64,000 nucleotides of DNA from an uncultured Spirochaetales bacterium (GTDB lineage Bacteria > Spirochaetota > Spirochaetia > JABEVK01): positions 19,780 through 83,779 of the forward strand of contig CAYYUZ010000001.1 of assembly GCA_964475005.1 (NCBI GenBank). Reading direction: 5' to 3'. A model generated the notes under the pieces. That model saw only the letters and a list, made by a program, of their open reading frames with translations. It ran no database searches and was not told where the DNA came from. This document shows, one piece after another, positions 1 to 49,558 of the stretch. Positions within the stretch are counted from its first letter, which is position 1. Every line of letters starts with the position of its first letter. Position numbers and translations under genes: made by a program.

Positions 1-515
1 CCGCCAAAAGAACGCGGCTCGACGCTGCTAACACGGCCCCAGGAGGCAGGGGGAGAAACTGCCTGGATGCCGAAGAATGGCCGTAGGGGAATCTCTTGTC
101 CCCACGGCAGCAAGGCGAGGTTGCGTGTGAGGTCAAAGGGAACGAACAAGAGCCGTTTGGCCGAAAAGTCCGCCGGCAAGGCGCCCTTGAGCGGCCACAG
201 TCCGTTCCAGCCCCAGGGCTGACGGACCTCCACCGACAGAAACCGCACCGAGAGTGTGTCGCCGGGTTCGGCTCCGCGCACTTCGATCGGTCCAGTGAGA
301 ATGTGGGGTCCTGGTCCACCGGTACCGTTCAGGATTTCAGAATGTTCCTTGAGGAGCGGAAAGGGCGAATCGGCAAGATCGGTTCTCGTACCCGACGGCA
401 GGGTGTCGACTTGAACGACATCACCGCTGTCGATGGAAAGGACGGGTTTCAGGGCGGCGTCGAGGAATCCGGTATGGGTGGTGGTCGCCGTGGCTGGCAG
501 AACGTGCTGGGCCAC
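1..515 (-). CDS. acetamidase/formamidase-family amidohydrolase (FmdA/AmdA-like), 5' part only; gene runs off the left edge
   Basis: Minus-strand frame is open from GTG at 515 down to nt 1. The translation (...HILTGPIEVRGAEPGDTLSVRF...) carries the HxLTGPI..GAEPGD signature of the acetamidase/formamidase family. An AAGAGG RBS lies about 8 nt upstream. The listed plus ORF 96..521 is its antisense shadow. Confidence 0.5.
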   Translation of the reverse strand, partial: MAQHVLPATATTTHTGFLDAALKPVLSIDSGDVVQVDTLPSGTRTDLADSPFPLLKEHSEILNGTGGPGPHILTGPIEVRGAEPGDTLSVRFLSVEVRQPWGWNGLWPLKGALPADFSAKRLLFVPFDLTRNLALLPWGQEIPLRPFFGIQAVSPPASWGRVSSVEPRSFG

Positions 516-517
516 GC

Positions 518-919
518 TTAGGCCTCTTTCGGACGGCGGACCACAAAATCCACTTCAACTAAGGCTCCCAGGGCCAGTTCCGCCACGCCTATGGTGGTTC
601 TGGCGGGCAGGTTGTTCGCGGTGAAATACTGGTTGTAAACGGCGTTGAAGGCCGCGTAGTCGCGCTTGAAGTGTGTCAGAAAAATGCGGACAAACGCGAC
701 ATCGGCGAAGACGGCCCCGACCGCATTCAGGACGGACTGCAAGTTGGCAAAGACTTGTCGTGTCTGGCCCTCCGCAGTGTCGGCAAGCGGAGCGTCAGGG
801 TGAAGCGGATCATTGCCTATTTGACCGGTCACGAACACCAACCCCCCGGCCTCGACCGCGTGGCTGTAAGGCGTCACCGGCTTGGGGGCGTCTGCAATGT
901 GATAGTGTTTGAGCGACAT
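518..919 (-). CDS. RidA/YjgF (Rid family) reactive-intermediate deaminase
   Basis: Rid/YjgF-like sequence over the full length (GLVFVTGQIG...VFLTHF). AGGAG RBS 6 nt before ATG at 919; the longer ORF to 946 has no RBS. Confidence 0.8.
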   Translation of the reverse strand: MSLKHYHIADAPKPVTPYSHAVEAGGLVFVTGQIGNDPLHPDAPLADTAEGQTRQVFANLQSVLNAVGAVFADVAFVRIFLTHFKRDYAAFNAVYNQYFTANNLPARTTIGVAELALGALVEVDFVVRRPKEA

Positions 920-969
920 GAAACTCTCCTGGAGGAAGCTGACCAAAAAACTTGGCCAGCCTCAAAACG

Positions 970-1956
970 TTACTTCAGAGCGGCTTCTAGGAAGCTTGTG
1001 TCAATGGCGGCTTGGAATCCGGCGAGGTCAGGAGCGGTTTCGATGGCCTTCTGACCCACCAGGAAGTCCGCAGTGCTCTTCAGAGTGTCCGCGAAGGGAC
1101 CTTTCTGCGCACCGGTTCCCAAGTATTTCACCTGGTCCTGAAGGCTCAGCCAGATGAAGCCCTTGGCCTCCTTGAGGGCCTCGGTCTTGTCGACGCCGAG
1201 TTCGGCGGCCAGAGCGGTTCCCGCCTCGTCTTCGCTGCTCTTGTAGAGGTCGAGGGCCTTCTGCTGAAGCTTGAGGTAGTTGACGACGATCTCGGGGTAC
1301 TTCTTGGCGAACTCCGAGTCGACAAGTTCCACCAGGGCCGTCACCACGCCTTTTTCGGCGAGCTTGCCGCTGTCGGTCAGTTCTTGGCCCTCGCCGGCGT
1401 AGAGTTTGCTTAGTGTCGGTTCCCAAACGTAGGCGGCATCGAGGTCTCCCCGGGTCCAGGCGGCGAAGATGTCTTGAGGCTGCAGGTCGAGGATCTTCAC
1501 GCTGGCGGGGTCGACGCCCTCCTGTTTCAGCGCGCTTAGGAGGCTGTAGTGCGTCGTTGAGGCAAACGGCACACCAACGCGCTTTCCAACGAAGTCTTTG
1601 ATCGAGGCGATCTTGGCCTTGGTCTTTACCGCCAAGGCTTCGCCGGAACCGATGATTTCATCGATGTAGATCAAGCTGACCTTGTTGCCCCGCGAGATGC
1701 CAACAGCCGCCGGAGTGCTACCCAGCAGGCCGAACTGGATGCTGTGCGAGGCGAAGGCCGTGTTGAGGTCTCGACCCGAGTCGAACTGTTTGAAAACAAC
1801 CTTGGCCCCAAGCTGGGCTTCGTACCACCCTTTGTTCTTGGCGATCAATTCGCCGTAGGGGGTGACCTGGTAGCCGATGGTCACCACATCGGGCTTCGAG
1901 GCGCAACTGCCCAGCAGCAGAGCCGCCGAGAGGACGGTCAAAAGTCTTGCAGTCAT
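970..1956 (-). CDS. ABC transporter substrate-binding protein, NMT1/TauA/SsuA-like (sulfonate/taurine family)
   Basis: Signal peptide MTARLLTVLSAALLLGSCAS (lipobox-like). Close paralog of 46573..47580, sharing runs such as KQFDSGRD.NTAFASGS and GSTTHYSLLSALK. RBS GGAGAC before ATG at 1956; the listed ORF start at 2019 lacks an RBS. Confidence 0.8.
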   Translation of the reverse strand: MTARLLTVLSAALLLGSCASKPDVVTIGYQVTPYGELIAKNKGWYEAQLGAKVVFKQFDSGRDLNTAFASHSIQFGLLGSTPAAVGISRGNKVSLIYIDEIIGSGEALAVKTKAKIASIKDFVGKRVGVPFASTTHYSLLSALKQEGVDPASVKILDLQPQDIFAAWTRGDLDAAYVWEPTLSKLYAGEGQELTDSGKLAEKGVVTALVELVDSEFAKKYPEIVVNYLKLQQKALDLYKSSEDEAGTALAAELGVDKTEALKEAKGFIWLSLQDQVKYLGTGAQKGPFADTLKSTADFLVGQKAIETAPDLAGFQAAIDTSFLEAALK

Positions 1957-2051
1957 GAGAGTCTCCTTAAAGATGAGTAATACGATCGATTTAGTAAAAT
2001 ATAAGAGAACCTTCGACATGTCAACCTACTCAGTTGATAAGATGTATTATT

Positions 2052-2969
2052 CTAGAGAACGAACCTCATCCTGTCGCGCCCCACCGTGATTTTGCCCCTG
2101 AAGATCGAATCCATCCCTCGAACATAGTCGTTCTGGGCCTCGGTCGTTTCAGCCGGTCCTGGAATGTGATGGGTGAGCACTAGGTGTGTTACCCCGGCGT
2201 TGCGGGCCTGCTGGGCCGCTTCGAGAGTCGTGCTGTGGTAGCTGGCGGGTTTTGCCAAACCGGCCGTCTGGTCGGGGTGGAGCCGGATCAGTTCGTCGAG
2301 CCACTCCTTGTTGTACGCTTCGTGGATCAAGAGGTCGGCGCCCCGTGCCTGGTCCACCAACGCCCTAACGGGAACCGTGTCTCCGGAAATGACGGCCGAC
2401 TTTCCCTGGTACTCGAACTTGTATCCAACGGCTGGCGTCACGGGCCGATGATCCACCGGAAAGGCTGTGACTCGGAGCCCTTCTCGGTCAAAGACCACGC
2501 CGAAGTCGTTTTCCTGGTATTCGATGTCCGCTCCTTGCTCTGCCGACCGGTTGAACCCGACCCGTAGGGCAATATCGTAGGCAAACGAGGCATATTGCGA
2601 CCCGATGATGGTCCTGGTTCCTGTCGGTCCGTACACTTGGAAGGGCACCTGTCGTCCTTCAAAGACGGATTCGACGGTCACATGGGTTCGCCAACTGGAA
2701 ATGAACAGGTCGAAGAACCCCGAATTGTGGTCGCTGTGATGGTGGGTGAAGAAAACCGTATCGACCCGCTGGGGAGCGATGCCGGCGTCCAGAAGCCTGT
2801 CGACGGTACCGCCTCCGCAGTCGACGACAAAGGTCTTGTTACCCGCTAGGACAGCCACCCCGGCCTTTCCCCTTCCAGGAAACGAGCGCGGCGTGCCTGT
2901 GCCCAGCAAGACTAGGGTCAGGTCTTCAACAAAGGAGGGAAAGGGGTTGTTGAGCGTGGCTAGCTGCAT
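2052..2969 (-). CDS. MBL-fold metallo-hydrolase
   Basis: HHHSDHNSG metallo-beta-lactamase motif (HxHxDH) and downstream His/Asp ligand pattern. AGGAG RBS 5 nt before ATG. Confidence 0.75.
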   Translation of the reverse strand: MQLATLNNPFPSFVEDLTLVLLGTGTPRSFPGRGKAGVAVLAGNKTFVVDCGGGTVDRLLDAGIAPQRVDTVFFTHHHSDHNSGFFDLFISSWRTHVTVESVFEGRQVPFQVYGPTGTRTIIGSQYASFAYDIALRVGFNRSAEQGADIEYQENDFGVVFDREGLRVTAFPVDHRPVTPAVGYKFEYQGKSAVISGDTVPVRALVDQARGADLLIHEAYNKEWLDELIRLHPDQTAGLAKPASYHSTTLEAAQQARNAGVTHLVLTHHIPGPAETTEAQNDYVRGMDSIFRGKITVGRDRMRFVL

Positions 2970-2977
2970 GAATTCTC

Positions 2978-3985
2978 CTATTTCTTTTTCTTAACCTCAG
3001 TCAGGTAAGACAGATCAAGGAACGGGTCTAGTTTGAGGTCGGCCGCGGTGACGCCCCGAAGGTACCCGGCTTCCAAAGAGGCTTGGGCGAAGATCTCCAG
3101 GGAGGAGAGGCTGACTTGATCGGTCAGCGACAGATGATCCAAAGCGGCTTTGACCAAGGGAGGGTCTATGCCTTTTCCCGTCAGCGTCTTGAGCTGGTCG
3201 CTGACCGAGGTCCACGACTTTTCGGGGGAGGCTTTCAGGAAGGCGATGCCCTCAAGGTTGCTCTTGATCACGGCCAAGGCCCAATCACGATGATTTTTGA
3301 GGAAATCATCGGAGGCGACAAGAATGGTCAGCGGGTACTTGCCGTCTTCGGGAGGAATCTTGTCCCAGTCGACAAGCACCGACCCTAGCCCTGCCTCAAC
3401 GATTTGGGTGCCCCAGGGTTCTGGCAGGAGCGCCGCATCAATTTGCTTCTGGCGAAACCCGGTAATGGTGTCGGCCGGAGCGCGGGTTACGATCTGAACT
3501 CCCGAAGCGTCATCGGTGACCTTCAAGCCGAACTGCTTCAGAAGCAGGCGGAGCGAGATCTCGTTGGTGCTGCCTTTGGTCGGGATCGCCACGGTCTTGC
3601 CGTTCAAGTCAGTCACGTTTTTTATCCCGGCCTCAGAGCGGACCACCAAAACGGCTCCCCCATTGTTTGACCCTGAGATCACCCGGAAGTTCTTACTCTT
3701 GAGGTATTGGTTGATCGCAGGACCTGGGCCGACGAAACCAATGTCCAGTTGACCCGACGCCAGCGCGGTGGAAAAGTCTGAACCGTTGTTGAAGGCCGAG
3801 ACCTCGATCTTCACCGCAGGGCCGAGGTTCTTTTGAAGGATGCCCTCCTGCAACGCCACCAAGGCCGGAGCGTGGGTCACATTTTTGAGAAGACCGAAGC
3901 GGACAGTGCCCGCCCCTTCGGCAAAGGCCGAAAGCGATGCAAGGCCCAATAGGCCGACCGCCGCAAAACGCAGTAGTACTTTCAT
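2978..3985 (-). CDS. ABC transporter substrate-binding protein (NitT/TauT family)
   Basis: Signal peptide MKVLLRFAAVGLLGLASLSAFA. Periplasmic-binding-protein architecture. First gene of the SBP-permease-ATPase leftward operon. Confidence 0.75.
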   Translation of the reverse strand: MKVLLRFAAVGLLGLASLSAFAEGAGTVRFGLLKNVTHAPALVALQEGILQKNLGPAVKIEVSAFNNGSDFSTALASGQLDIGFVGPGPAINQYLKSKNFRVISGSNNGGAVLVVRSEAGIKNVTDLNGKTVAIPTKGSTNEISLRLLLKQFGLKVTDDASGVQIVTRAPADTITGFRQKQIDAALLPEPWGTQIVEAGLGSVLVDWDKIPPEDGKYPLTILVASDDFLKNHRDWALAVIKSNLEGIAFLKASPEKSWTSVSDQLKTLTGKGIDPPLVKAALDHLSLTDQVSLSSLEIFAQASLEAGYLRGVTAADLKLDPFLDLSYLTEVKKKK

Positions 3986-4758
3986 ACAAGACTCCTTTTT
4001 CTTTCGGGGCTGAGTCCATACCGGACCAGAACTCGGTTTTCAAGGGACTGGAACAAGAGGTGGTCCATGACCGTTCCGATGACGGCAATCACCAGGACCA
4101 CGCACAAGATCATGGCCGTGTCGCCGATATCACGGCTGTCTTGCAGGGTCTGGCCCAGGCCCAACCCGCGCGACAGCAACTCTCCGGCGGTTAGGGCCCG
4201 CCAGGCGAAAGCCCAGGCGACCCGCACACCGGTCATCAGATGGGGAAACGAACCCGGAAGAACGACTTGAAGGAACAACCTCACACCGGTGCCCGTGCCC
4301 AGCATGCCGGCGGCCCGGGAGTACAGCGGCGGCAAGTTCAGTACGCCCGTCCGGGCGGCCAAAGTCATGGTCCAGGTTGCACCGATCGTGGTGATAAACA
4401 CGACCGCAACGTCGTTGAGCCCGAACCAGATAATGGCGAAAGGCAGCCAGGCAATGCTGGGAACCGTTTGAAGCGCCACGACCAGAAAGCCGAAGGTGTC
4501 GTCCACCCACCGGAATCGCGCAAAGAGAAAGCCCAACAGAGTGCCTAGAACCACAGCCAGGGCGAACGAGAAGAGAATGCGCCCGAGGCTGGCGAGAATG
4601 GCCCCGAGGAGCTTTCCGGTTGTTACACCATCGAGGAAAGCCTGCGCGGTCTGAAGAGCAGAAGGGAATTTCCATCCCCAGCCGAAGATCCTAAATGCCG
4701 CTTCCCAGGCTATCACCAGCAGAAGGAGGAAGGCGGCTCTCCGCCAAGTGGTATTCAA
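3982..4758 (-). CDS. ABC transporter permease (NitT/TauT family, TauC/SsuC-like)
   Basis: Six-TM BPD_transp_1 permease core. The listed ORF (to 5058) overlaps the upstream ATPase by more than 360 nt with a non-membrane-like N-terminus. The true start is probably a TTG near 4758, just inside the ATPase 3' end; the exact start is uncertain. Confidence 0.65.
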   Translation of the reverse strand: MNTTWRRAAFLLLLVIAWEAAFRIFGWGWKFPSALQTAQAFLDGVTTGKLLGAILASLGRILFSFALAVVLGTLLGFLFARFRWVDDTFGFLVVALQTVPSIAWLPFAIIWFGLNDVAVVFITTIGATWTMTLAARTGVLNLPPLYSRAAGMLGTGTGVRLFLQVVLPGSFPHLMTGVRVAWAFAWRALTAGELLSRGLGLGQTLQDSRDIGDTAMILCVVLVIAVIGTVMDHLLFQSLENRVLVRYGLSPERKRSLV

Positions 4759-5536
4759 AATCCAGTTCCTGTTTGAGGACCTTTTCGAGTTCTTCAGCGA
4801 GGTCCTCCATGATGATTTCTTCCAGACCGACAAGGTCCGGATCAGTCGCTCTCCGAGGCCGAGGAGCCGCGACCACAAGGTCACGCTTGATCCTTCCGGG
4901 AAGGGTGCCCATGACGACAACCCGATCCGAAAGTAGAAGCGCTTCGCGGATATTGTGGGTAACGAAGACGACAGTCCTTCCCGACTTGAGCCACAATTCC
5001 TCAAGGTCTTTCTGCAGAACGAACTTGGTTTGTTCATCGAGTGCGGCAAACGGCTCATCCATCAGCAGAATTTCCGGACTTATGACTAGTGCCCGGGCGA
5101 TGGCCGCGCGCTGTTTCATTCCCCCCGAGAGCTCGTGGGGAAAGCGGTCCGCGAACCGGCCCAGATGAACGGCTTGCAGTTGCTCTTGAGCCAGGGCCAC
5201 CCGATGCGATCGTTGAACGCCCCGTTGCTTCAGCCCAAAGGCGACGTTGTCGACAAGTGTCAGCCACGGAAACAGGGCAGGCTCCTGAAAGACCACGACC
5301 CTGTCGGGACCGGGACCGCCGACTTCCTGGCCGTCGATAAGAACAGAACCGGAGTCGGGCCGGTCAAACCCGGCCATGAGGTTGAGCAGAGTGCTCTTGC
5401 CACAACCAGACGGACCGACAAGGGAGACGAAAGTCCCCTTCTCGACCTCCAGGTCGAGATTTTCCAGAGCCAGGAACGGCTTGCGGCGGTTTTGGGAGAA
5501 AGACTTGCTGACACGGTCAACGGCAATTTGGGCCAC
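4691..5536 (-). CDS. ABC transporter ATP-binding protein (NitT/TauT family, SsuB/TauB-like)
   Basis: Walker A GPSGCGKST, signature LSGGMKQR, Walker B LLMDEP. Confidence 0.85.
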   Translation of the reverse strand: MAQIAVDRVSKSFSQNRRKPFLALENLDLEVEKGTFVSLVGPSGCGKSTLLNLMAGFDRPDSGSVLIDGQEVGGPGPDRVVVFQEPALFPWLTLVDNVAFGLKQRGVQRSHRVALAQEQLQAVHLGRFADRFPHELSGGMKQRAAIARALVISPEILLMDEPFAALDEQTKFVLQKDLEELWLKSGRTVVFVTHNIREALLLSDRVVVMGTLPGRIKRDLVVAAPRPRRATDPDLVGLEEIIMEDLAEELEKVLKQELDFEYHLAESRLPPSAGDSLGSGI

Positions 5537-5631
5537 GAGATCGATACTGTACTTAATCGCTCATATAAGTCAAGTATATCTTGCAACAAATGTTTCTTTG
5601 TCACAGGACAAGGTTAATTATCTAAGGTACC
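5537..5631. promoter_or_regulatory. AT-rich divergent control region between ssu/tau-like ATPase operon and ECF transporter operon
   Basis: 95-bp AT-rich gap in an otherwise GC-rich region between divergent starts. Contains TCATATAAGT and GTCAAGTATATC words that recur in other promoter gaps of the island (45707; 24165). Confidence 0.4.
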
Positions 5632-7293
5632 ATGGCACTTATGGTATCCGCACCCGCCTTGTCCGTCCGAGACCTTTCTTTCCAATACCGTCTGGGAACC
5701 CGACCCGCCTTAAGCTCCCTTTCGTTTGATCTGGAGGCGGGCGAAATTCTTCTGGTAGCTGGGGGAAGTGGAAGCGGCAAGTCGACCTTGGCCCGGTGCT
5801 TGAACGGACTGATTCCGAGATCCTACCGCGGCACGGTTGCTGGTTCCATCGTCTACCAAGGCCAAGACGTTTCGGGGCTCAGCCTTTCGCAACTGGCGCT
5901 TCTGGTTGGAACTCTGCAGCAAGACCCCGAAAAGCAAATCGTTGCCAGCCACGTGGCCGAAGAAGTCGCATTTGGGCCTGAGAACTTGGGCTGGCCGCGG
6001 CCGCGCATTCGAGACGCCGTTGAACGCACGTTGGAAGAACTAGGAATCTCTCATCTGCGCGACCGCGAGACCTTTCACCTCTCCGGCGGAGAGAAGCAAA
6101 AGGTCGCCTTAGCGGGGATACTGGCCATGGAACCCAAGGTCCTCCTCCTCGACGAACCGCTGGCGAGTCTGGATCCGAAATCGGGGCGGGAAGCGCTGGC
6201 CTTGATTCGGGCGCAGGCTCTTTCGGGCCGGGCCGTAGCCGTCATCGAACATCGTATCGAGGAGGTCCTGGGACTTTCTCCCCGGAGAGTCCTCCACCTC
6301 GAGGACGGCGTGCAGCGCTTCTGGGGTGGGCTGGACGGATTTCTGGACTCGGTCGACCCTGGGACCATGAAGCTTCCTGTGGAACACCTGCTGAAATTTC
6401 AGGGATACCCAAGTTCTCCGCCTCTTAGTCAGGCCAGTCGGTCAACTCCGGTTGTTGCCGAGTTTGACAACGTTGGGTTCTGGTACACGCCGGGGTTTCC
6501 GGTCCTGAGCCGGATTGGGTTCGCACTTCGGCGCGGGGACAGGATCGCCATCATGGGACCCAACGGGGCCGGGAAGTCCACGCTGATGAAGCATCTGATT
6601 GGGCTCCTTCAGCCCAAAGAAGGGAGGGTGGTGGTGCGCGGCCAAGAAACACGGTCAACGACCGTGGCGCGCCTGGCGGCTGACGTGGGGTACGTCTTTC
6701 AGAATCCCGGCCACATGCTGTTTGCCCCGACGGTGAAAGAGGAGCTGGCCTTTGGGCCGCACAACCTCAAGCACCCTGCCGACCGCGTCGAACGCGCCTG
6801 CGCCCACGCGCTCGACGTGGCGGTGTTATCGGGTACCGAGGAGAGGTCGCCGCTGAGCCTCTCTTTTGGCCGGCAGAAGCGGCTGGGGATCGCCGCCGTG
6901 CTCGCGATGGGGAGCCGAATCCTGGTCCTCGACGAGCCAACCGCCGGTCAGGATTACGCCAGTCAAAGGCGCTTTATGGACGAAGTGAGCCGACTGGAAA
7001 ACTTCGATGCTCTTGTTTTCATCACCCACGACCTTGATCTGGCGCTGACCTACGCCAACCGCGTCCTTCTGGTAGCCGATGGCACCCTGGCCGCCGATGG
7101 AAGCCCCGAGGAGGTCTTGACGCGGCCGGAGCTGTTGGAACGGTGTCATCTGATTCCGACATCGCTCCTGGAACTGAACAAGGCCGCCTTCGCGTTGACG
7201 GGGCGCTTCGGTGGGCCCGACGTCTTTCGTTCCCTCCCCGAGAAAAACAAAAAAGCTATACTTGATAATGACTATAGAATTGGTAGACTTTGA
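5632..7293 (+). CDS. ECF transporter ATPase, fused tandem EcfA1-EcfA2
   Basis: Two complete ABC domains: Walker A GGSGSGKST and GPNGAGKST; signatures LSGGEKQK and LSFGRQKR. Confidence 0.85.
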   Translation: MALMVSAPALSVRDLSFQYRLGTRPALSSLSFDLEAGEILLVAGGSGSGKSTLARCLNGLIPRSYRGTVAGSIVYQGQDVSGLSLSQLALLVGTLQQDPEKQIVASHVAEEVAFGPENLGWPRPRIRDAVERTLEELGISHLRDRETFHLSGGEKQKVALAGILAMEPKVLLLDEPLASLDPKSGREALALIRAQALSGRAVAVIEHRIEEVLGLSPRRVLHLEDGVQRFWGGLDGFLDSVDPGTMKLPVEHLLKFQGYPSSPPLSQASRSTPVVAEFDNVGFWYTPGFPVLSRIGFALRRGDRIAIMGPNGAGKSTLMKHLIGLLQPKEGRVVVRGQETRSTTVARLAADVGYVFQNPGHMLFAPTVKEELAFGPHNLKHPADRVERACAHALDVAVLSGTEERSPLSLSFGRQKRLGIAAVLAMGSRILVLDEPTAGQDYASQRRFMDEVSRLENFDALVFITHDLDLALTYANRVLLVADGTLAADGSPEEVLTRPELLERCHLIPTSLLELNKAAFALTGRFGGPDVFRSLPEKNKKAILDNDYRIGRL

Positions 7294-7333
7294 CAAATCG
7301 GTGTCTGCGGGCATCCGATCAAAGGAGGTTTCC

Positions 7334-8277: not shown

Positions 8278-8303
8278 GGAGTGAAACGACCTGGAGAATC
8301 CGG

Positions 8304-14496: not shown

Positions 14497-14622
14497 GGAA
14501 ACCTCCACGGGTGTGAAAACTTTACTCTACTGAGTTGATCGAGTTATATAACATGAAAAATATCATGTCAAGTTGAATAGTCGTGAATTGACAAGAGCCC
14601 TCAAAAGAGCGATCATGTCACC

Positions 14623-17533: not shown

Positions 17534-17566
17534 AACGCCCTCGATCTTTCACTTGATCCCAAGAGA

Positions 17567-30956: not shown

Positions 30957-30963
30957 ACAGGTG

Positions 30964-31386: not shown

Positions 31387-31473
31387 GAAACTCTCCTTGA
31401 GGATTCTATTATGAGTAATGCTATCAACTAAATAGTATATGAAATCAGCAGAGTTAATCAAGAAGGAGATTCC

Positions 31474-32940: not shown

Positions 32941-32997
32941 CTAATACTATCGGATTGGTAATATTAGAAAGAAAATTGATTTTCCAAGGAGTCCGAC

Positions 32998-34011: not shown

Positions 34012-34030
34012 TTTGTCGAAGCGGGGTTCC

Positions 34031-36953: not shown

Positions 36954-37053
36954 GGAGCTCTCCTCTTAATGACTATCGAAGTAGTAGGACATATATACTA
37001 AAATGTCAATCATCTATATTGACATTAGAAACAATGTTGAATACGGTGTGCCT
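36954..37053 (+). promoter_or_regulatory. AT-rich promoter region of metNIQ-like operon
   Basis: TATATTGACA (-35-like TTGACA) at about 37013-37022; the same 10-mer occurs upstream of the porin gene (about 42193-42202). TAGTA-N9-TACTA inverted repeat at about 36981-36999. Confidence 0.4.
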
Positions 37054-38498: not shown

Positions 38499-38599
38499 CC
38501 GGCGTTGTTGTCGGGCGCGGCCGCTCTGATCCGCCCGCCCACCAGGGGTTCTGGTGTTCTAAAGACTACTAAAACCATGTTTTCAATAGGAGATAACTC

Positions 38600-41195: not shown

Positions 41196-41247
41196 CCTCC
41201 CGGGCAAGACGTAGTCTCTTATCTATACTTTGTCAATAGGATTACTC

Positions 41248-42280: not shown

Positions 42281-43375
42281 GTGAAGAAGACTTTGTTGAC
42301 TTTCCTGCTTGTCGGCCTCGTGGCTGCAGGCTTTGCCCAATCGGCTCCGGCCCCCCAGAATCAGATCGACGCCGGCGCCGGGTTCTACTACACCGACCCG
42401 ACAGGTGTGTACAGCAATTTCTTGGCGAGCAAGACCAACGGACAAACAGCCAAGTACTCGCCGACGCTGAACTGGAACGGCAAGTACACCTACACGTTGC
42501 CGTTGGATAGTGCCGATACTCTGAAGTTCGCCCTGGCCGACGATGGCTGGTTCGGGCTCTATTCCGGGTCGAGCAACACCGCCGTGGGATCCGGACAAAA
42601 CGCCGGTAAAATCACACCGGCGGCCGAATACCTGGGTTACGGCGCCGACGTGACGCTCTCTCTCCCAATCTACTACTTGTCTCCTGCCGACGTCGGGGGC
42701 TACAACACTCTGAAGTACGCCTACAAGGAAGCCGGCTACCTGCCGATCGGGCCCGCCACTTCGACTGGCAACTATCCTTTGAGTTCGAATTCCGTCGTGG
42801 CAGCCACGAACCTGAACGCCGTTTACAAATACAGTTTCGACAAAACGACTTGGGTCTCGGGAGGATTTTCGACTCTCCTGGCCTTGAATCCGACACCGTG
42901 GCTGACCTCGTTCCTGCCCAAGGTTTCTGGCGGCGCCTACGGTGTGCAGCTCGATGTTCAGTTCGACGACTACAACGCCTACAACAACGGCGGCGACGCG
43001 GCTTACTACGACCTGTACTTGGAGCCCAAGCTGACTTACGACCTCGGCTTCCTCCAACTGGTTCCCAATCTGAAGCCCTACGTCTCCTCGCGCCTGTCGC
43101 TAGCGACAAGCAACCCAGTTTATACAGTCAAAGGTTCTGCCCAGCCGTTCCACGACTCGTTTATCCAGCCGGGATTGGCCTACTCGTACACGTTCCCCCA
43201 GATTGGCACCTTTGGGATCGACGCGGGATGGAGGTTTGCCAAGTTTGACAACGTCGGCAGCTTCAACGCTGCCGGAACTGGGTATTCCAACAATGTGGTT
43301 ACCAACAGTAACAAGAATGACGTCGTTCCTTATTCCGACCTCCGGATTGCCCTAAGTTACACCTACAAGTTCTGA
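42281..43375 (+). CDS. outer-membrane beta-barrel protein (putative porin)
   Basis: Signal peptide MKKTLLTFLLVGLVAAGFAQ. Alternating amphipathic strands rich in Y/G/T. C-terminal YTYKF ending in Phe (OMP sorting signal). Confidence 0.65.
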   Translation: MKKTLLTFLLVGLVAAGFAQSAPAPQNQIDAGAGFYYTDPTGVYSNFLASKTNGQTAKYSPTLNWNGKYTYTLPLDSADTLKFALADDGWFGLYSGSSNTAVGSGQNAGKITPAAEYLGYGADVTLSLPIYYLSPADVGGYNTLKYAYKEAGYLPIGPATSTGNYPLSSNSVVAATNLNAVYKYSFDKTTWVSGGFSTLLALNPTPWLTSFLPKVSGGAYGVQLDVQFDDYNAYNNGGDAAYYDLYLEPKLTYDLGFLQLVPNLKPYVSSRLSLATSNPVYTVKGSAQPFHDSFIQPGLAYSYTFPQIGTFGIDAGWRFAKFDNVGSFNAAGTGYSNNVVTNSNKNDVVPYSDLRIALSYTYKF

Positions 43376-43464: not shown

Positions 43465-44229
43465 ATGAAAAAGTATCTGATTTTTGCGGCGGTGTTGCTG
43501 CTGGCTGGCGGGCTTTTCGCCCAAGACAAGGACCTCGAGGCCATCAAGAAGGCCGGTGTCTGGAAGGTTGGCACCGAGGGCACTTACCCACCGTTCACGT
43601 TTCACGACGCTTCGGGCAAGCTCGTCGGTTTCGACGTGGAGATCGCCCAGGAGGTCGGCAAAAAGCTCGGCGTGAAAACCGAATTCGTCGAAGGAAAGTG
43701 GGACGGGCTGATCGCCGGCGTCGATGTGCGACGCTACGACGCCGTGGTGAACGAAGTCACCATCACCGAGGCCCGGAAGGCCAAGTACGACTTCAGCGAC
43801 TCCTACATCGTTTCGAAAGCGGTTCTAATCGTCAAGGCCGACAACTCGACCATTCACTCCTTTGCCGACGTGAAGGGCAAGAAACTTGGCCAGTCGCTCA
43901 CCAGCAACTTTGGCAAGCTGGCCAAGGACAACGGCGCCGAAGTCGTGGCGGTCGACGGCTTCAACCAATCGATCGACCTTTTGCTTTCGGGCCGTATCGA
44001 CGGAACCTTCAACGACAGCCTTTCCTACTATGACTTTGCCAAGCAGAAGCCCGACGCCAAGCTCAAGATCGCTGCCAGCCAGTCCGATGTGGACGCTCAA
44101 GGGATTCTTGTCCGCAAGGGCGAGTCCAAACTCCTGTCAGCGCTGAACAAGGCGTTGGCCGACCTCAAGGCCGACGGCACCTACGCCAAGATCAGTCAGA
44201 AGTATTTCGGCGCCGACGTCTCGAAGTAA
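43465..44229 (+). CDS. amino-acid ABC transporter substrate-binding protein (family 3 SBP; cystine/TcyA-FliY-like)
   Basis: Signal peptide MKKYLIFAAVLLLAGGLFAQ; SBP_bac_3 blocks (GTEGTYPPF, GFDVEIA). Confidence 0.7.
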   Translation: MKKYLIFAAVLLLAGGLFAQDKDLEAIKKAGVWKVGTEGTYPPFTFHDASGKLVGFDVEIAQEVGKKLGVKTEFVEGKWDGLIAGVDVRRYDAVVNEVTITEARKAKYDFSDSYIVSKAVLIVKADNSTIHSFADVKGKKLGQSLTSNFGKLAKDNGAEVVAVDGFNQSIDLLLSGRIDGTFNDSLSYYDFAKQKPDAKLKIAASQSDVDAQGILVRKGESKLLSALNKALADLKADGTYAKISQKYFGADVSK

Positions 44230-44247
44230 GTTTAGGAAAGCCACACC

Positions 44248-44928
44248 ATGCCCCACTGGTTGGAGATCCTTCGGGACGCCTTCCTGCCGCTGTTGGCCGC
44301 CGGCGCGGCTTTCACCATTCCCCTCGCGCTGCTATCATTTGTCATCGGACTGGTTCTAGGACTGTTAACCGCGCTGGGTCGGGCCTTTGGTCCGGCTCCG
44401 TTTTCGCTCCTGGCCCGTTTCTACGTTTGGATCATCCGAGGAACGCCTCTTTTGGTCCAACTCTTTCTGATTTTCTATGGTCTGCCCGCGGTCGGCATCG
44501 TGATCGATGCCTTTCCTGCCGCGCTGATCGGGTTCTCGCTCAACATGGGCGCCTACACGAGCGAGATCATCCGCGCGGCCATCGCCTCGGTGCCTCAGGG
44601 GCAGTGGGAGGCCAGTTTTTCTGTCGGGATGACCTGGAGCCAGGCGTTGCGCCGGACGATTCTGCCGCAGGCGGCGAGGGTCGCGACGCCTCCTCTGGCC
44701 AACAGCTTCATCTCGTTGGTCAAAGACACCTCGCTCGCGGCCGCGATCACGGTCACCGAAATGTTCCAAACGGCGCAGCGCATCGCCGCCGCCAACTACG
44801 AACCGCTGATCCTCTACAGCGAGGCCGCCGTTCTTTATCTGGCCTTCTGTTCCGTGCTTTCGGCCCTGCAAAACCGGCTTGAAACCCGGCTGGGTAGGCA
44901 CTTGAGTCCGCTTGAGGTGGTGCGATGA
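44248..44928 (+). CDS. amino-acid ABC transporter permease (His/Glu/Gln/Arg/opine family; TcyB-like)
   Basis: HEQRo-permease motifs (IIRGTPLLVQLF..., EAA-loop region SEIIRAAIASVP). Confidence 0.75.
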   Translation: MPHWLEILRDAFLPLLAAGAAFTIPLALLSFVIGLVLGLLTALGRAFGPAPFSLLARFYVWIIRGTPLLVQLFLIFYGLPAVGIVIDAFPAALIGFSLNMGAYTSEIIRAAIASVPQGQWEASFSVGMTWSQALRRTILPQAARVATPPLANSFISLVKDTSLAAAITVTEMFQTAQRIAAANYEPLILYSEAAVLYLAFCSVLSALQNRLETRLGRHLSPLEVVR

Positions 44929-45668
44929 TCCGCCTGACAGGAATCGAAAAAGCGTTTGGTTCTACGGTCGTCCTTCACGGCGTCGATCTCGAAGTGAAAG
45001 AGGGAACCGTGACCGCGCTGATCGGCCCCTCGGGAGGCGGCAAGAGCACGCTCTTGCGCTGCGTGAATCTGCTCGAAAGGCCGCGCGCCGGCCGCCTCGA
45101 ACTGGGCGACCTGACGGTCGTGTTTCACGGCGACCATCCAGTCGCCCGCGAACAGCTCCATGAGGTCCGGCAGAGAACCGGCACGGTCTTTCAGGCGTTC
45201 CACCTGTTTCCCCACCGGACAGCCCTGGGCAACGTCATTGAAGGCCTGCTGACGGTGCAGAAAAGGCCCCGTCAAGAAGCCGAAGCTCGGGGGAGGGCGC
45301 TCCTCGACCGGGTTGGGCTTTTGGCGAAACAAGACGCCTATCCTGGGCAACTCTCAGGCGGCCAACAGCAACGAGTCGCCATTGCCCGGGCCTTGGCGGG
45401 CAATCCCCGCGTGCTTCTTTGTGACGAACCGACTTCGGCTCTCGACCCCGAATTGGCCCGCGAAGTCGTCGAGGTGCTCACCTCGCTGGCCCGCGACGGC
45501 ATCACCATGATTGTCGCCACCCACGACTTGAGGCTGGCTGCCAACGTTGCTGGGCAAGTGGCTTTCCTGGAATCGGGTCGGGTTGTCGAGTTGGGAACCT
45601 CCGAGCAAGTTCTCCGGAACCCCATGATTTCGCGCACTCGCGAATTCGTTTCCTCTATTTCACATTAA
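44925..45668 (+). CDS. amino-acid ABC transporter ATP-binding protein (TcyC/GlnQ-like)
   Basis: Walker A GPSGGGKST, signature LSGGQQQR, Walker B LLCDEPTSALD; ATGA overlap with the permease stop. Confidence 0.85.
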   Translation: MIRLTGIEKAFGSTVVLHGVDLEVKEGTVTALIGPSGGGKSTLLRCVNLLERPRAGRLELGDLTVVFHGDHPVAREQLHEVRQRTGTVFQAFHLFPHRTALGNVIEGLLTVQKRPRQEAEARGRALLDRVGLLAKQDAYPGQLSGGQQQRVAIARALAGNPRVLLCDEPTSALDPELAREVVEVLTSLARDGITMIVATHDLRLAANVAGQVAFLESGRVVELGTSEQVLRNPMISRTREFVSSISH

Positions 45669-45747
45669 ATCACACGAGATAGTTGACAATCGCAATCGAC
45701 TTTAATATCCTACTAAAACGATCATATAAGTAGTTCGTGAGGAAGGG

Positions 45748-46551
45748 TTGATTTTGGCGTATCGCGTTCCCCGAGTTCGACTCGAAACCGTTCTCACCTT
45801 CGTTACCGTAATTGTGTTGCTGGCGGCGTGGTTTGTGATCACCGCAGAGGGTTGGGTCACCGACGTGTTGGTGCCCTCTCCCAAGAAAGTGTGGGACTCG
45901 TTTCTGGTGATTCTGCGCGACGGCTACAAAGATCACAGCCTGGCGGCCCACCTTGGCGACAGCCTTTACCGCATCCTGGGGTCGTTTGCCCTGGTGGTCG
46001 TCACGGCCATCCCCTTGGGGCTCTGGAGCGGAACCAACTCCAAAGTGCGAGCCATCGTCGAGCCGTTGGTCGAGTTTTATCGCCCGTTACCACCACTGGC
46101 CTACTACACCCTGTTGGTTCTCTGGTTGGGTATTGAAGACACCTCAAAGATGGCGCTGCTGTACCTGGCGGCGTTTGCGCCGGTCTACGTTGCCTGCGCC
46201 ACCGCCGTCGGGAAAGTCCGTCCTTCTTGGATTCAATGCGCCCGAACTTTGGGTGCCAACCGCAGACAGGTGTTCTTCCGGGTCATTTTTCGCGCCTGCC
46301 TCCCGGATATTTTCACAGGACTTCGCACGGCCCTTGGCGTTTCGTACACGACCTTGGTTGCGGCTGAAATGGTAGCGGCGGTGTCGGGAATCGGTTGGAT
46401 GGTGCTCGACGCCAGCCGGTTTCTCCGCAGCGACGTGATCTTCGTCGGCATCATCCTGATGGGGATCACAGGAATCCTTCTCGATCAGGGTGTGCGGGTC
46501 ATCGAACGCCGGGTTCTCCCCTGGCGAGAAACTTTACCAAAGGCTTCATAA
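45748..46551 (+). CDS. ABC transporter permease (NitT/TauT family, TauC/SsuC-like), paralog set 2
   Basis: BPD_transp_1 core; TTG start with GAGGAAGGG RBS. Upstream AT-rich gap contains TCATATAAGT, shared with 5556. Confidence 0.7.
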   Translation: MILAYRVPRVRLETVLTFVTVIVLLAAWFVITAEGWVTDVLVPSPKKVWDSFLVILRDGYKDHSLAAHLGDSLYRILGSFALVVVTAIPLGLWSGTNSKVRAIVEPLVEFYRPLPPLAYYTLLVLWLGIEDTSKMALLYLAAFAPVYVACATAVGKVRPSWIQCARTLGANRRQVFFRVIFRACLPDIFTGLRTALGVSYTTLVAAEMVAAVSGIGWMVLDASRFLRSDVIFVGIILMGITGILLDQGVRVIERRVLPWRETLPKAS

Positions 46552-46572
46552 GTTCTTAAAAAGGAGGAAGAT

Positions 46573-47580
46573 ATGAAGATTCTGCATATTCTGGCAGTCG
46601 CCGCGGCGCTGTCTGTTTTGGGGGTGGTCAGCCTGACCGCCGAAAGCAAACCCGACGCGATCACCATTGGGTTTCAGGTGATTCCCAATGATGAGATTTT
46701 GGCCAAGGCCCAGGGGTGGTACGAGAAGGAACTCGGCGTGAAGGTCAACTTCAAGCAGTTTGATTCCGGCCGCGACGTGAACACCGCCTTCGCCTCGGGC
46801 AGCCTCGACTTTGGCTTGGCGGGAAGCACCCCGACCGCTGTCGGTATTTCCCGCGGTTTGTCCTACCAGGTGTTTTGGATTCACGATGTCATTGGCGCCG
46901 CTGAGTCGCTGGCCGTCAAGAACAAGGCCAACATCAACACCTTGGCCGACCTCAAGGGCAAAAAGGTCGCCGTTCCCTTTGGTTCGACCACCCACTATAG
47001 CCTGCTGAGCGCGCTCAAACTCGAAGGCATCAAGGCTTCCGACGTGACCATTCTTGACCTGCAGCCGCCGGACATCTACGCCGCTTGGCAACGAGGTGAC
47101 ATCGACGCGGCCTACGTCTGGCAACCCACGCTTGGCAAGCTCTTGGCCGACGGCAAGATCATCACCGACAGCGCCGTTCTGGCATCGAAGGGCATTGTGA
47201 CCGCCGACATCGGTTTGGTGAGCATCGCCTTTGCCAAGAAGTATCCGGCGTTGGTGACCAAGTACGTGAAACTTCAGGAGAAGGCCTACCAGCTGTTCAA
47301 CTCGACTCCTACTCCAGCTTCTGAAGCCATCGGCAAGGCCATAGGCACCGACGGACCGGAGGCCTTGAAGGAAGCCAAAGAACTGGTTTGGCTCCCCCTG
47401 AAGACCCAGATCTCGCCGGCCTATTTGGGCAGCTCGTCGAAAAAGGGTGATCTGGCCAAGACCTTGAAGGCCACGGCTGACTTCTTGGTCGAACAGAAGA
47501 CCATCGACAGCGCGCCTGCCTTGTCGGTCTTTGAAGCCGCCGTCAATCCCAAGTTTGCCGAGGATGCCGCCAAGTCATGA
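46573..47580 (+). CDS. ABC transporter substrate-binding protein, NMT1/TauA/SsuA-like, paralog of 970..1956
   Basis: Signal peptide MKILHILAVAAALSVLGVVSLTA; long identical runs to the 970..1956 product. Confidence 0.8.
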   Translation: MKILHILAVAAALSVLGVVSLTAESKPDAITIGFQVIPNDEILAKAQGWYEKELGVKVNFKQFDSGRDVNTAFASGSLDFGLAGSTPTAVGISRGLSYQVFWIHDVIGAAESLAVKNKANINTLADLKGKKVAVPFGSTTHYSLLSALKLEGIKASDVTILDLQPPDIYAAWQRGDIDAAYVWQPTLGKLLADGKIITDSAVLASKGIVTADIGLVSIAFAKKYPALVTKYVKLQEKAYQLFNSTPTPASEAIGKAIGTDGPEALKEAKELVWLPLKTQISPAYLGSSSKKGDLAKTLKATADFLVEQKTIDSAPALSVFEAAVNPKFAEDAAKS

Positions 47581-48356
47581 AGCACACCATCGCCCTTCAA
47601 CAGGTTTCACAGAGCTATTCGAAGGGCGATGGCTCCGTGGTCCAAGCGTTGCTCAACGTCGACCTGACCATTTCTGGGTCGGAGTTCGTTTCGTTTTTGG
47701 GCCCGAGTGGCTGCGGGAAGTCAACTTTATTGAGGCTGATCGCGGGGTTGGAGGCGGCCCAATCCGGGCGTCTCCTGCTGGGTGAAGATCCCATCACCGG
47801 CCCGGATCAGCGCCGGGGGCTTGTTTTTCAAGATCCCAACCTCTTCCCGTGGCTTTCTGTCTGGGAAAATATCGAGTTTGGACCCCGGCTGAGGTCGTCG
47901 CGGCCGGATCGGTCACGCGTGGCCGAATTGATTCGTCTTGTCGGTCTCGAAGGCTTTGAGAAATCCTATCCTCATCAGCTTTCGGGAGGCATGGCTCAGC
48001 GGGCCGCGCTGGCTCGAACCCTGATCAACGACCCCGAAGTGCTGTTGCTCGATGAGCCGCTGGGAGCCCTCGACAGCTTCACCCGCATGTCGATGCAAGA
48101 GGAACTCTTGCGGGTGTGGGAAACGGCCGGTACGACCATGATCATGGTCACCCACGATATCGATGAGGCCATCTTTCTGAGCGACCGCATTGCCGTGTTT
48201 TCTTCGCGGCCAGGCCGTATTCAAACCGTCATTCCGGTTCCTCTGAGCCGCCCGAGGCTGCGTAACAGCCCAGAATTTATTCAAATCCGCTCCCGAATTC
48301 TGGAGCTTTTCCATTTCGCCCACTCGTTGGGTGACCCCGAGGAGCCCTTCCTCTGA
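47577..48356 (+). CDS. ABC transporter ATP-binding protein (TauB/SsuB-like)
   Basis: Walker A GPSGCGKST, signature LSGGMAQR, Walker B LLLDEP. Confidence 0.85.
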   Translation: MKHTIALQQVSQSYSKGDGSVVQALLNVDLTISGSEFVSFLGPSGCGKSTLLRLIAGLEAAQSGRLLLGEDPITGPDQRRGLVFQDPNLFPWLSVWENIEFGPRLRSSRPDRSRVAELIRLVGLEGFEKSYPHQLSGGMAQRAALARTLINDPEVLLLDEPLGALDSFTRMSMQEELLRVWETAGTTMIMVTHDIDEAIFLSDRIAVFSSRPGRIQTVIPVPLSRPRLRNSPEFIQIRSRILELFHFAHSLGDPEEPFL

Positions 48357-48378
48357 AATCGCCAACAAGGAGTCTTTC

Positions 48379-49425
48379 ATGAGCGCGACCACTGTCCATC
48401 TTCATCCCGAATCTCTGGGGATCACGATCGAGGATGGAACCTCGTTCGAATTTCATTACCTGTGGCTTCGCCATCACTGCGACTCCAGCCGCCATCCTCA
48501 GACGGGAGAGCGGACTCTCGACCCCGTCGAAATCGACCCCGCCATCGAGCCCGTATCCGCCCTCATCGAGGGGGAGGGGGAGAACGAGAACCTGGTCCTG
48601 ACTTGGCCCGAGGGTTTGACCAGCCGGTTTCTAGTCTCGCGTTTGAAGGACCAACCTTACGCGGTGAACCTCAAGGCCGTCGATATTCCTCCTCCCGATC
48701 CGGCTCGCTTGACCTGGAACGACGCCTTCAGTGCAAATGCAATTCTCCGGCGCGTCAAAAATGAGGGTGCGGTTCTCGTCCGTGGTTGGGGCGAGGACAC
48801 CGAAGCTCTCATAGGTCTGTTCGAACAGGCTAACCTCAAGGTTCGGGAAACCCATTTTGGCCGGATCGAAGATCTGAAGACCGACAACACAACCAACAAG
48901 AACACCGACCAACTGGGCTACACCAACAGTGCTGTCGATTTGCATTCGGATCAAACCTACCTCGAAGATCCACCACCGTATCAGCTCCTCCAATCCATCC
49001 GCACGGCCGACTCGGGCGGCGAAAGCTTACTGACTAATGGCCGGGCCTTAGTCGACTATATCAAGGCCACCTCACGACAGGACTATGAGTTGCTGACTAC
49101 GGTACCAGTAGTGTTTCACCGGGTGCAAAAGAACTTTGAGAAGAAACTTTCGACTCCTTTGGTGATCGAAGAGCCCGATGGCCGCGTCCTGATTCGTTTG
49201 AGCTACTTCACCTTGGCTCCCTTTGCTTATCCGTTTGATCTGACACGCGATTGGTACCGCGCCTACACCCGGTTCACCTCGCTGGCCAGAGGAAGGCACT
49301 TCCAATATCGATTCCTTCTTCAGCCTGGGGATTTTGTCCTTTACGACAATCTGAGGATGCTTCACGGTCGCACGGCGTTCAGTGGTCCTCGCTGGGTCCG
49401 GGGAATCTACTTTGATGAGTCGTAA
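48379..49425 (+). CDS. TauD/TfdA-family 2OG/Fe(II) dioxygenase with N-terminal gamma-butyrobetaine-hydroxylase-like (DUF971) domain
   Basis: N-terminal FHYLWLRHHCDSSRHPQTGER (GBBH N-domain-like), TauD core with HxD (DLHSDQTY) and distal His (MLHGRTAF). AAGGAG RBS 7 nt before ATG 48379. Confidence 0.7.
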   Translation: MSATTVHLHPESLGITIEDGTSFEFHYLWLRHHCDSSRHPQTGERTLDPVEIDPAIEPVSALIEGEGENENLVLTWPEGLTSRFLVSRLKDQPYAVNLKAVDIPPPDPARLTWNDAFSANAILRRVKNEGAVLVRGWGEDTEALIGLFEQANLKVRETHFGRIEDLKTDNTTNKNTDQLGYTNSAVDLHSDQTYLEDPPPYQLLQSIRTADSGGESLLTNGRALVDYIKATSRQDYELLTTVPVVFHRVQKNFEKKLSTPLVIEEPDGRVLIRLSYFTLAPFAYPFDLTRDWYRAYTRFTSLARGRHFQYRFLLQPGDFVLYDNLRMLHGRTAFSGPRWVRGIYFDES

Positions 49426-49558
49426 ATTGATGCCTGGCCAAGTCATAGAGTTTTGGAAGTTTGTTGGTACCTATTGACCAAAACTCTCAACTATCCTAAT
49501 CTGAACCATAATGTCGAGTAACACGGTTGACATGGTTGTGTATCGTAAGGAGGATTCC

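Follow-up and report, generated by a model that had tools for sequence, protein, structure and literature searches.

The 64,000-nt window analysed here (positions 19,780 to 83,779 of contig CAYYUZ010000001.1, assembly GCA_964475005.1, from an uncultured Spirochaetales bacterium) carries a contiguous block of genes for the transport and metabolism of sulfur compounds. In our reading, to which we give a probability of about three in four, this block is a chromosomal sulfur-starvation gene cluster of ∼51.5 kb and of the same kind as the thiol cluster of Rhodospirillum rubrum. Its functional centre, as predicted from the encoded proteins, is a nitrogenase-like system resembling methylthio-alkane reductase (Mar), a carbon–sulfur (C–S) reductase, and this Mar-like enzyme probably cuts C–S bonds without oxygen. 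Soil and wetland sulfur is mostly organic. To our knowledge, nearly all characterised desulfurising enzymes need oxygen, the nitrogenase-like C–S reductases are an anoxic route found only recently, and only proteobacterial examples have been tested. The block sets the Mar-like system beside likely importers, thiol-fixing enzymes, cofactor maturases, a candidate regulator and candidate operators. It yields a concrete list of testable substrates, partners and binding sites, and cultured carriers of the same enzyme clade exist.

Nitrogenase-like genes and their Mar-like features

The best solved relatives of the nitrogenase-like proteins are MarH, MarD and MarK of R. rubrum (PDB 9FMG and 9D9U; 9FMG was checked to be the methylthio-alkane reductase complex). 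E-values to 9FMG are 7e-148 for MarH, 5e-96 for MarD and 2e-102 for MarK, whereas true NifD is matched only at ∼1e-29. The MarH-like Fe protein (17731–18606, minus strand) has the P-loop and VVCGGF motifs and both [4Fe-4S] cysteines, and passes the nifH model TIGR01287. The P-cluster cysteines are kept in the MarD-like subunit (22648–24120, minus strand; positions 66, 91 and 158), and three are likewise kept in the MarK-like subunit (21338–22651, minus strand), where the RYVC, GPGC and SGC motifs align to MarK. Moreover, the [Fe8S9C] cluster ligands of MarD, Cys270 and His429, are present in the window protein and in 11/11 relatives of its clade. Cofactor maturation is represented by MarB (18966–19850, minus strand), a stand-alone NifB-type radical S-adenosylmethionine (SAM) protein of 294 aa with E = 7e-81 to the stand-alone NifB 7bi7; it does not include a NifX domain.

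Such a domain is encoded between marB and marH by a same-strand gene of 124 codons (18599–18973, minus strand; PF02579), whose NifX/Nitro_FeMo-Co domain scores 42.9 bits against a cut-off of 26.3. This NifX-like gene, overlooked by the first-pass annotation, is translationally coupled to both neighbours, with 8-nt overlaps at the marB stop and the marH start. In its place, public metagenome annotations give an 84-aa open reading frame (ORF) on the plus strand (18725–18979); the minus-strand NifX-like ORF is most likely the real gene. Rhodopseudomonas palustris cannot grow on dimethyl sulfide (DMS) without a NifX homolog.

These genes form two operons, marB-nifX-marH and marD-marK, and each is divergent from one O-acetylhomoserine sulfhydrylase gene with which it shares a promoter region: metY2 (19965–21275, plus strand) faces marB, and metY3 (24290–25594, plus strand) faces marD. 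The metY3 operon runs on into an NMT1-type ATP-binding cassette (ABC) importer, cystathionine beta-synthase (CBS) and cystathionine gamma-lyase (CGL). NifE and NifN genes are absent from the block. The first-pass annotation had noted an Rrf2 regulator and a nitrogenase-like reductase as embedded in the block. Both are present, but the nitrogenase-like genes are no foreign insert: together they make up the Mar-like system at the centre of the block.

Gene content and density of the block

Because the window has a GC content of 54–63% and numerous spurious ORFs, the gene map was drawn from three sources: codon-position GC, Pfam and NCBIfam scans, and the gene calls with precomputed Pfam labels of public metagenome contigs. 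These contigs are 99.9–100% identical to the window and come from several wetland or peat metagenomes and rhizosphere samples. By our own count of Pfam and NCBIfam matches, 31 of the 49 genes between 518 and 49425 belong to families of sulfur-compound transport or metabolism, and for 14 more the operon context is the sole link to sulfur. With a generous background of 5%, the binomial tail for at least 28 sulfur genes in 50 is ∼1e-23, thus the density is not a product of chance. The claim of the first-pass annotation that nearly every gene here relates to sulfur amino acids or organosulfur import therefore holds as to density, with the named families found where they had been placed; homology searches put the transporters and the pyridoxal phosphate (PLP) enzymes in sulfur families and not in unrelated ones. 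Its further proposal of a dedicated sulfur-scavenging module is also supported, since the block matches in kind the 36-kb thiol cluster that R. rubrum induces under sulfate limitation. In particular, the combination typical of that cluster (mar genes, methionine importers and O-acetylhomoserine sulfhydrylase) is found here in one contiguous region.

The block comprises at least 14 transcription units and uses both strands. Pairwise identity is 42–51% among MetY1, MetY2 and MetY3, 56% between the two taurine-type binding proteins (970–2019 and 46573–47580), and 59% between the ATPases of ABC sets 2 and 4 (25666–28454 and 45748–48356). At such identities the paralogs of the block are judged to be old and not recent duplicates.

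Candidate operators and a candidate regulator

Seven divergent intergenic regions are short and AT-rich, with TTGACA boxes and strong AAGGAG ribosome sites. A palindrome-constrained expectation-maximization search of 12 promoter regions returned the motif ACTAAnTCnATnGAnTTAGT, with a log-likelihood of 57.2 against 32.9 ± 2.7 (maximum 39.3) in 25 shuffles. When the whole window was scanned with this matrix at ≥10.5 bits, all 13 hits fell within the block, always in a 5′ region, and the 14.5-kb phage-like flank had none. Two of these hits, at 1976 and 7265, lie outside the training set, and the first of them (AGTAATACGATCGATTTAGT, 1976–1995) is the best in the window. The simpler 20-bp post hoc consensus, ACTAA-N10-TTAGT, has four matches with at most one mismatch where 0.31 are expected. 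The motif also recurs in another genome of 43% GC (locus L014), whose proteins are 62–82% identical to those of the window: the matrix scores 17.6 directly upstream of a metY-mar operon and 16.6 upstream of CBS.

Further candidate operators lie where the set-1 ATPase gene and the ECF (energy-coupling factor) transporter operon diverge (5551–5570), between marB and metY2 (19891–19910, overlapping a TTGAC box) and between marD and metY3 (24213–24268, together with a perfect 7-5-7 palindrome, CACTAGTCTGTAACTAGTG). Others are found upstream of the CysK-fusion gene (31414–31433), between that gene and the 2-oxoglutarate (2OG)-Fe oxygenase gene (32940–32959), in the rhodanese/cysM divergent region (41227–41246), and upstream of ABC set 4 (45712–45731), where 17/21 bases match the site at 5550. 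An alternative operator core, TAAWRCKATCR, gave eight matches with one mismatch against 4.9 expected; as this is not significant, it was replaced by the 20-bp palindrome. A consensus promoter scan added little. Control by a SAM or T-box riboswitch was rejected, as Rfam gave no match in the window at the gathering threshold or even at E ≤ 0.5. A perfect ACTAA-N10-TTAGT also occurs inside the coding sequence of the TauD-family gene (49033–49052); given its GC-rich centre, it may be a chance match.

The natural candidate for binding these palindromes is the Rrf2-family protein encoded beside marH (17102–17533, plus strand). The rrf2 superfamily model matches it above cut-off, CymR is its best NCBIfam equivalog, and it has no cysteine. 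CymR is a cluster-less Rrf2 repressor, and its regulon in Bacillus subtilis includes cystine and sulfonate importers, CBS/CGL-type enzymes and cysK.

The D/K clade and other readings of the block

Several findings weigh against the thiol-cluster reading. Identity to the characterised R. rubrum enzyme is only 35–36% for MarD and 42% for MarK; this lies under the 52–56% at which R. palustris NflDK3 resembles Mar1, and NflDK3 is nevertheless inactive on the volatile sulfur compounds tested. Moreover, the active Mar, Mar1 and Mar2 enzymes have M70, H194, W195, S196, F199, F374 and H375, and the active-site set of the window protein is I194, W195, A196, F199, W374 and H375. Hence H194, S196 and F374 of the active Mar1/Mar2 are changed to I, A and W, and the channel residues M70, C73, Y98 and I101 to C, G, L and S. 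As to gene content, four of the 49 genes have no visible sulfur link (the peptide deformylase, the Peripla_BP_4 protein, the beta-propeller and an 85-aa lipoprotein), the Pfam and NCBIfam scans found no homoserine O-acetyltransferase family among the genes of 1–49.4 kb, and no sulfite reductase gene lies within the block. As to regulation, −35 TTGACA boxes are partly absorbed by the motif model, the simple consensus was defined after the fact, the Rrf2 protein reaches 112.9 bits where the CymR cut-off is 195, and no Rrf2 gene was seen in seven relatives' loci (∼10-kb flanks).

The altered residues are shared by a wider group. Eleven relatives have MarD proteins 45–75% identical to that of the window and only 33–35% identical to R. 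rubrum MarD, and all of them have C70, I/V194, W195, A196, F199, W374 and H375 in common. Named carriers of this group are, among others, Geotalea toluenoxydans (71%) and Syntrophobotulus glycolicus (56%), along with Clostridium species and Bacteroidales symbionts. By these identities and residues, the window MarD probably belongs to a clade separate from characterised Mar, with an active-site signature of its own. We call the system Mar-like rather than Mar.

It is possible, and the most serious of the alternatives, that the block is a sulfur cluster whose nitrogenase-like enzyme is not a methylthio-alkane reductase and belongs instead to a distinct clade that acts on some other type of imported organosulfur compound, for example polar thioethers or sulfonates entering by the adjacent NMT1-type ABC system, and releases thiol or sulfide for the MetY paralogs. 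The 35% identity to R. rubrum MarD fits such a change of substrate, as does the set C70, I/V194, A196 and W374 in 12 sequences from Bacillota, Bacteroidales, Geotalea-like and other genomes. Seven loci of the clade were compared, each of at most 21.5 kb (∼10 kb on either side of nflD): nflDK has MetY as a neighbour in 6/7, parts of an Ssu-type ABC system in 5/7, CBS/CGL in 3/7 and MetNIQ in 2/7. An adjacent ABC importer points to an imported substrate, as a volatile such as DMS needs none. Tandem NflD paralogs in Bacteroidales loci point in the same direction, and most Group IV clades are still uncharacterised according to a 2026 Chem Rev review (PMC13474568). Against this, Mar is still the best solved relative by a wide margin, the cluster ligands are identical to those of Mar, and its close pairing with an O-acetylhomoserine sulfhydrylase follows the logic of Mar precisely. 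A related reading, a shade less likely still, is that the D/K pair stands for a widespread, uncharacterised clade of nitrogenase-family C–S reductases with the active-site signature given above, carried by peat metagenome-assembled genomes as well as by Geotalea, Syntrophobotulus, Clostridia and Bacteroidales and linked nearly everywhere to this sulfhydrylase and an ABC importer, and that it acts on non-volatile organosulfur compounds of a new class that are taken up by import. If this is true, anaerobes would gain an undescribed oxygen-independent route to sulfur.

Two features of the relatives' loci bear on the clade itself. Bacteroidales loci (L015, 9869–14145; L016, 10001–15919) carry two to three tandem NflD paralogs of 64–84% mutual identity followed by a single NflK, which points to one K subunit serving alternative D subunits. 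In G. toluenoxydans (L034, 7081–11470), NifX-like and URO-D family genes precede the metY-nflD-nflK operon. As URO-D is a family of corrinoid methyltransferases, this gene hints at methyl-group handling beside the nitrogenase-like clade.

The first-pass annotation had also suggested asking whether the whole block is syntenic among relatives. In the seven loci it is not: gene order and the full 49 kb are not conserved within the 10-kb flanks. What recurs across phyla are modules: nflDK next to MetY, an ABC importer and, in some loci, CBS/CGL or MetNIQ. That relatives have modules only, together with the number of transcription units on both strands and some embedded genes without a sulfur link, would be expected if independent, separately regulated operons merely lay side by side with no shared role. 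We consider this unlikely, since the sulfur-gene density is far over chance, a palindromic motif is shared by most promoter regions and by an orthologous locus, and a co-induced 36-kb cluster is on record in R. rubrum (PMC13474568).

Boundaries, flanks and host

To the left of the window, the set-1 operon runs on through RidA and a formamidase/acetamidase to an arylsulfotransferase, and is followed by a NosD/NosF/NosY/NosL-like copper cluster. Hence the block starts ∼2.1 kb outside the window. Of the span of 1–49430 given by the first-pass annotation, the right end stands, at the TauD-family gene (49425), and the left end has to be moved outward. On the right, a DUF2325 gene comes next and is followed by a phage-like or mobile module (50032–64000) of strongly positive GC skew, which encodes a PD-(D/E)XK nuclease, RadC, RecT, SSB, a WYL/WCX regulator, a Mu Gam-like protein and a DnaB-like helicase. 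Overlapping contigs from other samples that reach the 49.4-kb junction all continue into this module.

The abutting mobile module, and the presence of the closest MarD homologs (69–75% identity) in unrelated phyla, could be taken as signs of a horizontally acquired mobile genomic island. However, GC is uniform (0.54–0.63) across block and flanks, no tRNA gene was found in the window, and neither an integrase nor terminal direct repeats were found at the borders or flanks of the block. In addition, contigs from several samples are 99.9–100% identical where they overlap and have the same flanks at each junction reached. With no tRNA gene, integrase or compositional break, mobility is unsupported and we regard it as improbable; the word ‘island’, where used for this block, means a metabolic gene cluster. 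Finally, a role in nitrogen fixation, or in energy metabolism by dissimilatory organosulfur respiration in place of assimilation, can practically be dismissed: MarH does exceed the NCBIfam nifH cut-off and Pfam labels D and K as nitrogenase component 1, but D and K are far closer to Mar than to NifD, NifE/N are missing, the block contains no dsr, sulfite reductase, glycyl-radical isethionate or taurine lyase genes, and enzymes of cysteine and methionine biosynthesis dominate it.

The left-hand Nos-like cluster (L026/L027) has a counterpart that also adjoins nitrogen fixation-like (NFL) genes in another peat genome (L035, 18063–21229); either conserved synteny or a functional tie to copper or sulfur trafficking may lie behind this. 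The block also holds two copies of a ∼165-nt element at convergent gene ends (17565–17730 and 30960–31120), with conserved terminal inverted repeats, GAGACCGGATAACCGG ... CCGGTTATCCGGTCTC, around a variable centre. It folds at −59 kcal/mol (z = −4.75) and looks like a repetitive extragenic palindrome (REP) or miniature inverted-repeat transposable element (MITE); no Rfam family matches it.

An outer-membrane beta-barrel channel, which had also escaped the first-pass annotation, is encoded after cysM (42281–43375, plus strand). It has 364 aa, a signal peptide and a C-terminal YTYKF, and the fold predicted for it, at pLDDT 77, is matched by FadL, OmpG and porins. It appears lineage-restricted, with only 30 homologs, one of which (37% identical) is labelled Spirochaetia. 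Paralogs of the channel adjoin pstSCAB-phoU on a contig that also bears a lipid A acyltransferase; hence the host has an outer membrane.

Comparison with known systems and proposed working

Systems of this kind are already known. R. rubrum has a 36-kb thiol cluster with marBHDK that is induced >50-fold by sulfate limitation (PMC13474568; structure 9FMG, PMC12552129), Group IV NFL genes are generally associated with sulfur genes (2026 Chem Rev review, PMC13474568), and sulfur-regulated Mar clusters are ringed by metNIQ and O-acetylhomoserine sulfhydrylase genes (PMC13474568; bioRxiv 10.64898/2026.08.20.746119). Like the thiol cluster, the window block is contiguous over tens of kilobases and joins a NifB/H/D/K-like reductase to methionine ABC importers and O-acetylhomoserine sulfhydrylase, with the same metal-cluster ligands and the same presumed logic of thiol release followed by direct methionine synthesis. 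It differs in host phylum, in D/K proteins that are only 35–42% identical, and in the active-site and channel residues. Moreover, its mar genes lie in two separate operons (marB-nifX-marH and marDK), and opposite each of them stands a metY paralog; its candidate regulator is a cysteine-free Rrf2 protein and not the LysR-type SalR, and no PadR-type MarS was found; and it has no homoserine O-acetyltransferase. It has in addition CBS/CGL, BisC, an ECF transporter, oxygenases and the outer-membrane channel. Of these departures from the known thiol cluster and Mar neighbourhood, the uncharacterised NFL clade at the centre is the most interesting.

The Mar2/NflDK3 region of R. palustris (RPA2344-2364; bioRxiv 10.64898/2026.08.20.746119) also has its NFL genes split into H/B and D/K loci, and among them lie metY, metC, a NifX homolog and transporters for sulfonates and methionine. 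All of these genes are induced by sulfate limitation (same preprint). However, its gene order and regulators differ from those of the window, and the three D/K sets of R. palustris are 52–65% identical mutually and to Mar, whereas the single set of the window comes from a clade further away. The CymR regulon of B. subtilis and Staphylococcus aureus (PMC2869319) has in common with the block a cluster-less Rrf2 protein and, as targets or putative targets, a cystine importer, an ssu importer, CBS/CGL-type reverse transsulfuration and cysK. In contrast, Bacillus targets are scattered on the chromosome and the putative ones of the window are contiguous, the window regulator is under the CymR cut-off, and the bacterium that carries it has an outer membrane. 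Isethionate reductase IsrBHDK (Group IV-F, PMC13474568) is likewise nitrogenase-like, opens organosulfur to use without oxygen and has a link to genes of sulfur starvation, but it is without the nitrogenase P-cluster and cofactor ligands, all of which are kept by the window proteins, and it releases sulfite, which needs a sulfite reductase that the window block does not have.

In the working that we propose, organosulfur compounds would cross the channel in the outer membrane and then be taken up by six importers: three Ssu/Tau-type ABC systems with four binding proteins, MetNIQ, the cystine-type ABC system and the ECF transporter. Under anoxic conditions, MarH would pass electrons, using ATP, to MarDK, which would carry a P-cluster and an L-type [Fe8S9C] cluster, the latter made by MarB and the NifX-like carrier; the product would be a thiol, most likely methanethiol. 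Oxygen-dependent or hydrolytic routes may be provided by the TauD-family and 2OG-Fe oxygenases, the flavin monooxygenase, the metallo-beta-lactamase (MBL)-fold hydrolase and the arylsulfotransferase, and cytoplasmic BisC would reduce S-oxides such as methionine sulfoxide, possibly also dimethyl sulfoxide to DMS. With the three O-acetylhomoserine sulfhydrylases, methionine or homocysteine would be formed from the thiol or sulfide. CysK together with CysM and the rhodanese would lead to cysteine, and CBS with CGL would convert homocysteine to cysteine, with RidA clearing reactive enamines. The cysteine-free, CymR-like Rrf2 protein would act as a repressor that occupies the 20-bp palindromes of the shared promoter regions and leaves them once sulfur becomes limiting; the recurring promoter motif is an indirect sign in favour of such induction. 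The presence of oxygen-sensitive and oxygen-dependent routes in one block fits a habitat with fluctuating redox conditions.

Other genes of the block

The transporters that the first-pass annotation had listed are all there. ABC set 1, of the Ssu/Tau type (970–5536, minus strand), comprises the taurine/sulfonate-type binding protein (970–2019), a second binding protein of the SsuA sulfonate family that exceeds its NCBIfam cut-off (2978–3985), a permease (3982–4716) and an ATPase (4691–5536). Its expected MBL partner is a hydrolase with an HxHxDH motif that is RNase Z-like, well under the family cut-off (2052–2969). RidA (518–919, family match), an enamine/imine deaminase of the Rid family, and the first 171 codons of an FmdA_AmdA formamidase/acetamidase (1–515) belong to the same operon on the minus strand. 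The third, NMT1-type set (ABC set 2; 25666–28454, plus strand) consists of an NMT1_2 binding protein that is weakly SsuA-like, a permease and an ATPase. ABC set 4 (45748–48356, plus strand), again of the Ssu/Tau type, has a permease, a taurine/SsuA-type binding protein (46573–47580) and an ATPase, and is followed by the TauD-family Fe/2OG dioxygenase (48379–49425, plus strand). The latter had been called TauD-like; the family stands, with an HxD...H triad, but its N-terminal domain refines it to the gamma-butyrobetaine-hydroxylase-like branch.

Family matches likewise bear out the ECF transporter (5641–9140, plus strand), with a fused A-A′ ATPase (5641–7293), an S component (7334–8104) and a T component of the CbiQ family (8304–9140), the cystine-type polar amino-acid set of binding protein, permease and ATPase (43465–45668, plus strand), and the MetN, MetI and MetQ-like methionine importer (37003–39379, plus strand). 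The MetN-like ATPase (37003–37833) has 276 aa and its alignment ends at position 247 of the 343-position MetN model, having begun at position 1; it is thus without the C-terminal regulatory NIL domain, which in Escherichia coli MetN mediates methionine feedback.

The enzymes had also been named correctly. MetY1 (15265–16563, plus strand), preceded by a Cupin_2 protein (14623–15072, plus strand) and followed by a CoA_binding_2 protein (16524–17063, plus strand), completes the three O-acetylhomoserine sulfhydrylase paralogs. CBS (28438–29823, plus strand) is above the TIGR01137 cut-off and is followed by a PLP enzyme of the cystathionine gamma-lyase/synthase type (29820–30956, plus strand). CysK is fused to a C_GCAxxG_C_C domain (31474–32940, plus strand), and CysM, cysteine synthase B (41248–42144, plus strand; above cut-off), stands beside the rhodanese sulfurtransferase (39420–41195, minus strand), whose four domains appear as four Pfam stretches. 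The BisC-family molybdopterin S/N-oxide reductase (9015–11435, minus strand) has no signal peptide region, consistent with a cytoplasmic place. The called 3′ ends of the convergent BisC and ECF T genes overlap by 126 nt (9015–9140), and one of them may be miscalled.

Between the CysK fusion and MetN lie a 2OG-Fe(II) oxygenase with DIOX_N and 2OG-FeII_Oxy domains (32998–34011), an OsmC-family protein (33959–34531) and a flavin-containing monooxygenase-like protein that is weakly ArsO-like (34528–35640), all on the plus strand, and on the minus strand a short-chain dehydrogenase/reductase (35609–36415) and a 181-aa protein with a CxxC motif and no family match (36408–36953). The predicted 85-aa lipoprotein (31129–31386) and the peptide deformylase (11484–12008), which has no demonstrated sulfur link, are also on the minus strand.

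The orphan binding protein that the first-pass annotation had counted among the organosulfur transporters is present (13447–14508, minus strand), but it is a sugar-type Peripla_BP_4 protein without evidence for a sulfur role. It is paired with a conserved seven-bladed, LVIVD-repeat beta-propeller with a phosphotriesterase-like fold (12049–13308, minus strand), likewise without sulfur evidence. We considered whether this 419-aa propeller is a methanethiol oxidase (SBP56) and rejected this: the Pfam hint is weak (E = 0.033), the predicted fold is closest to a beta-propeller phosphotriesterase, that of Sphingobium TCM1 (5HRM), and the Pectobacterium and Mesorhizobium contexts are without sulfur genes. 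The propeller is ∼70% identical to proteins of Pectobacterium, Mesorhizobium and Burkholderiaceae, and the binding protein is its partner in other genomes too, so that the pair is a conserved two-gene module, here without a cognate permease or ATPase.

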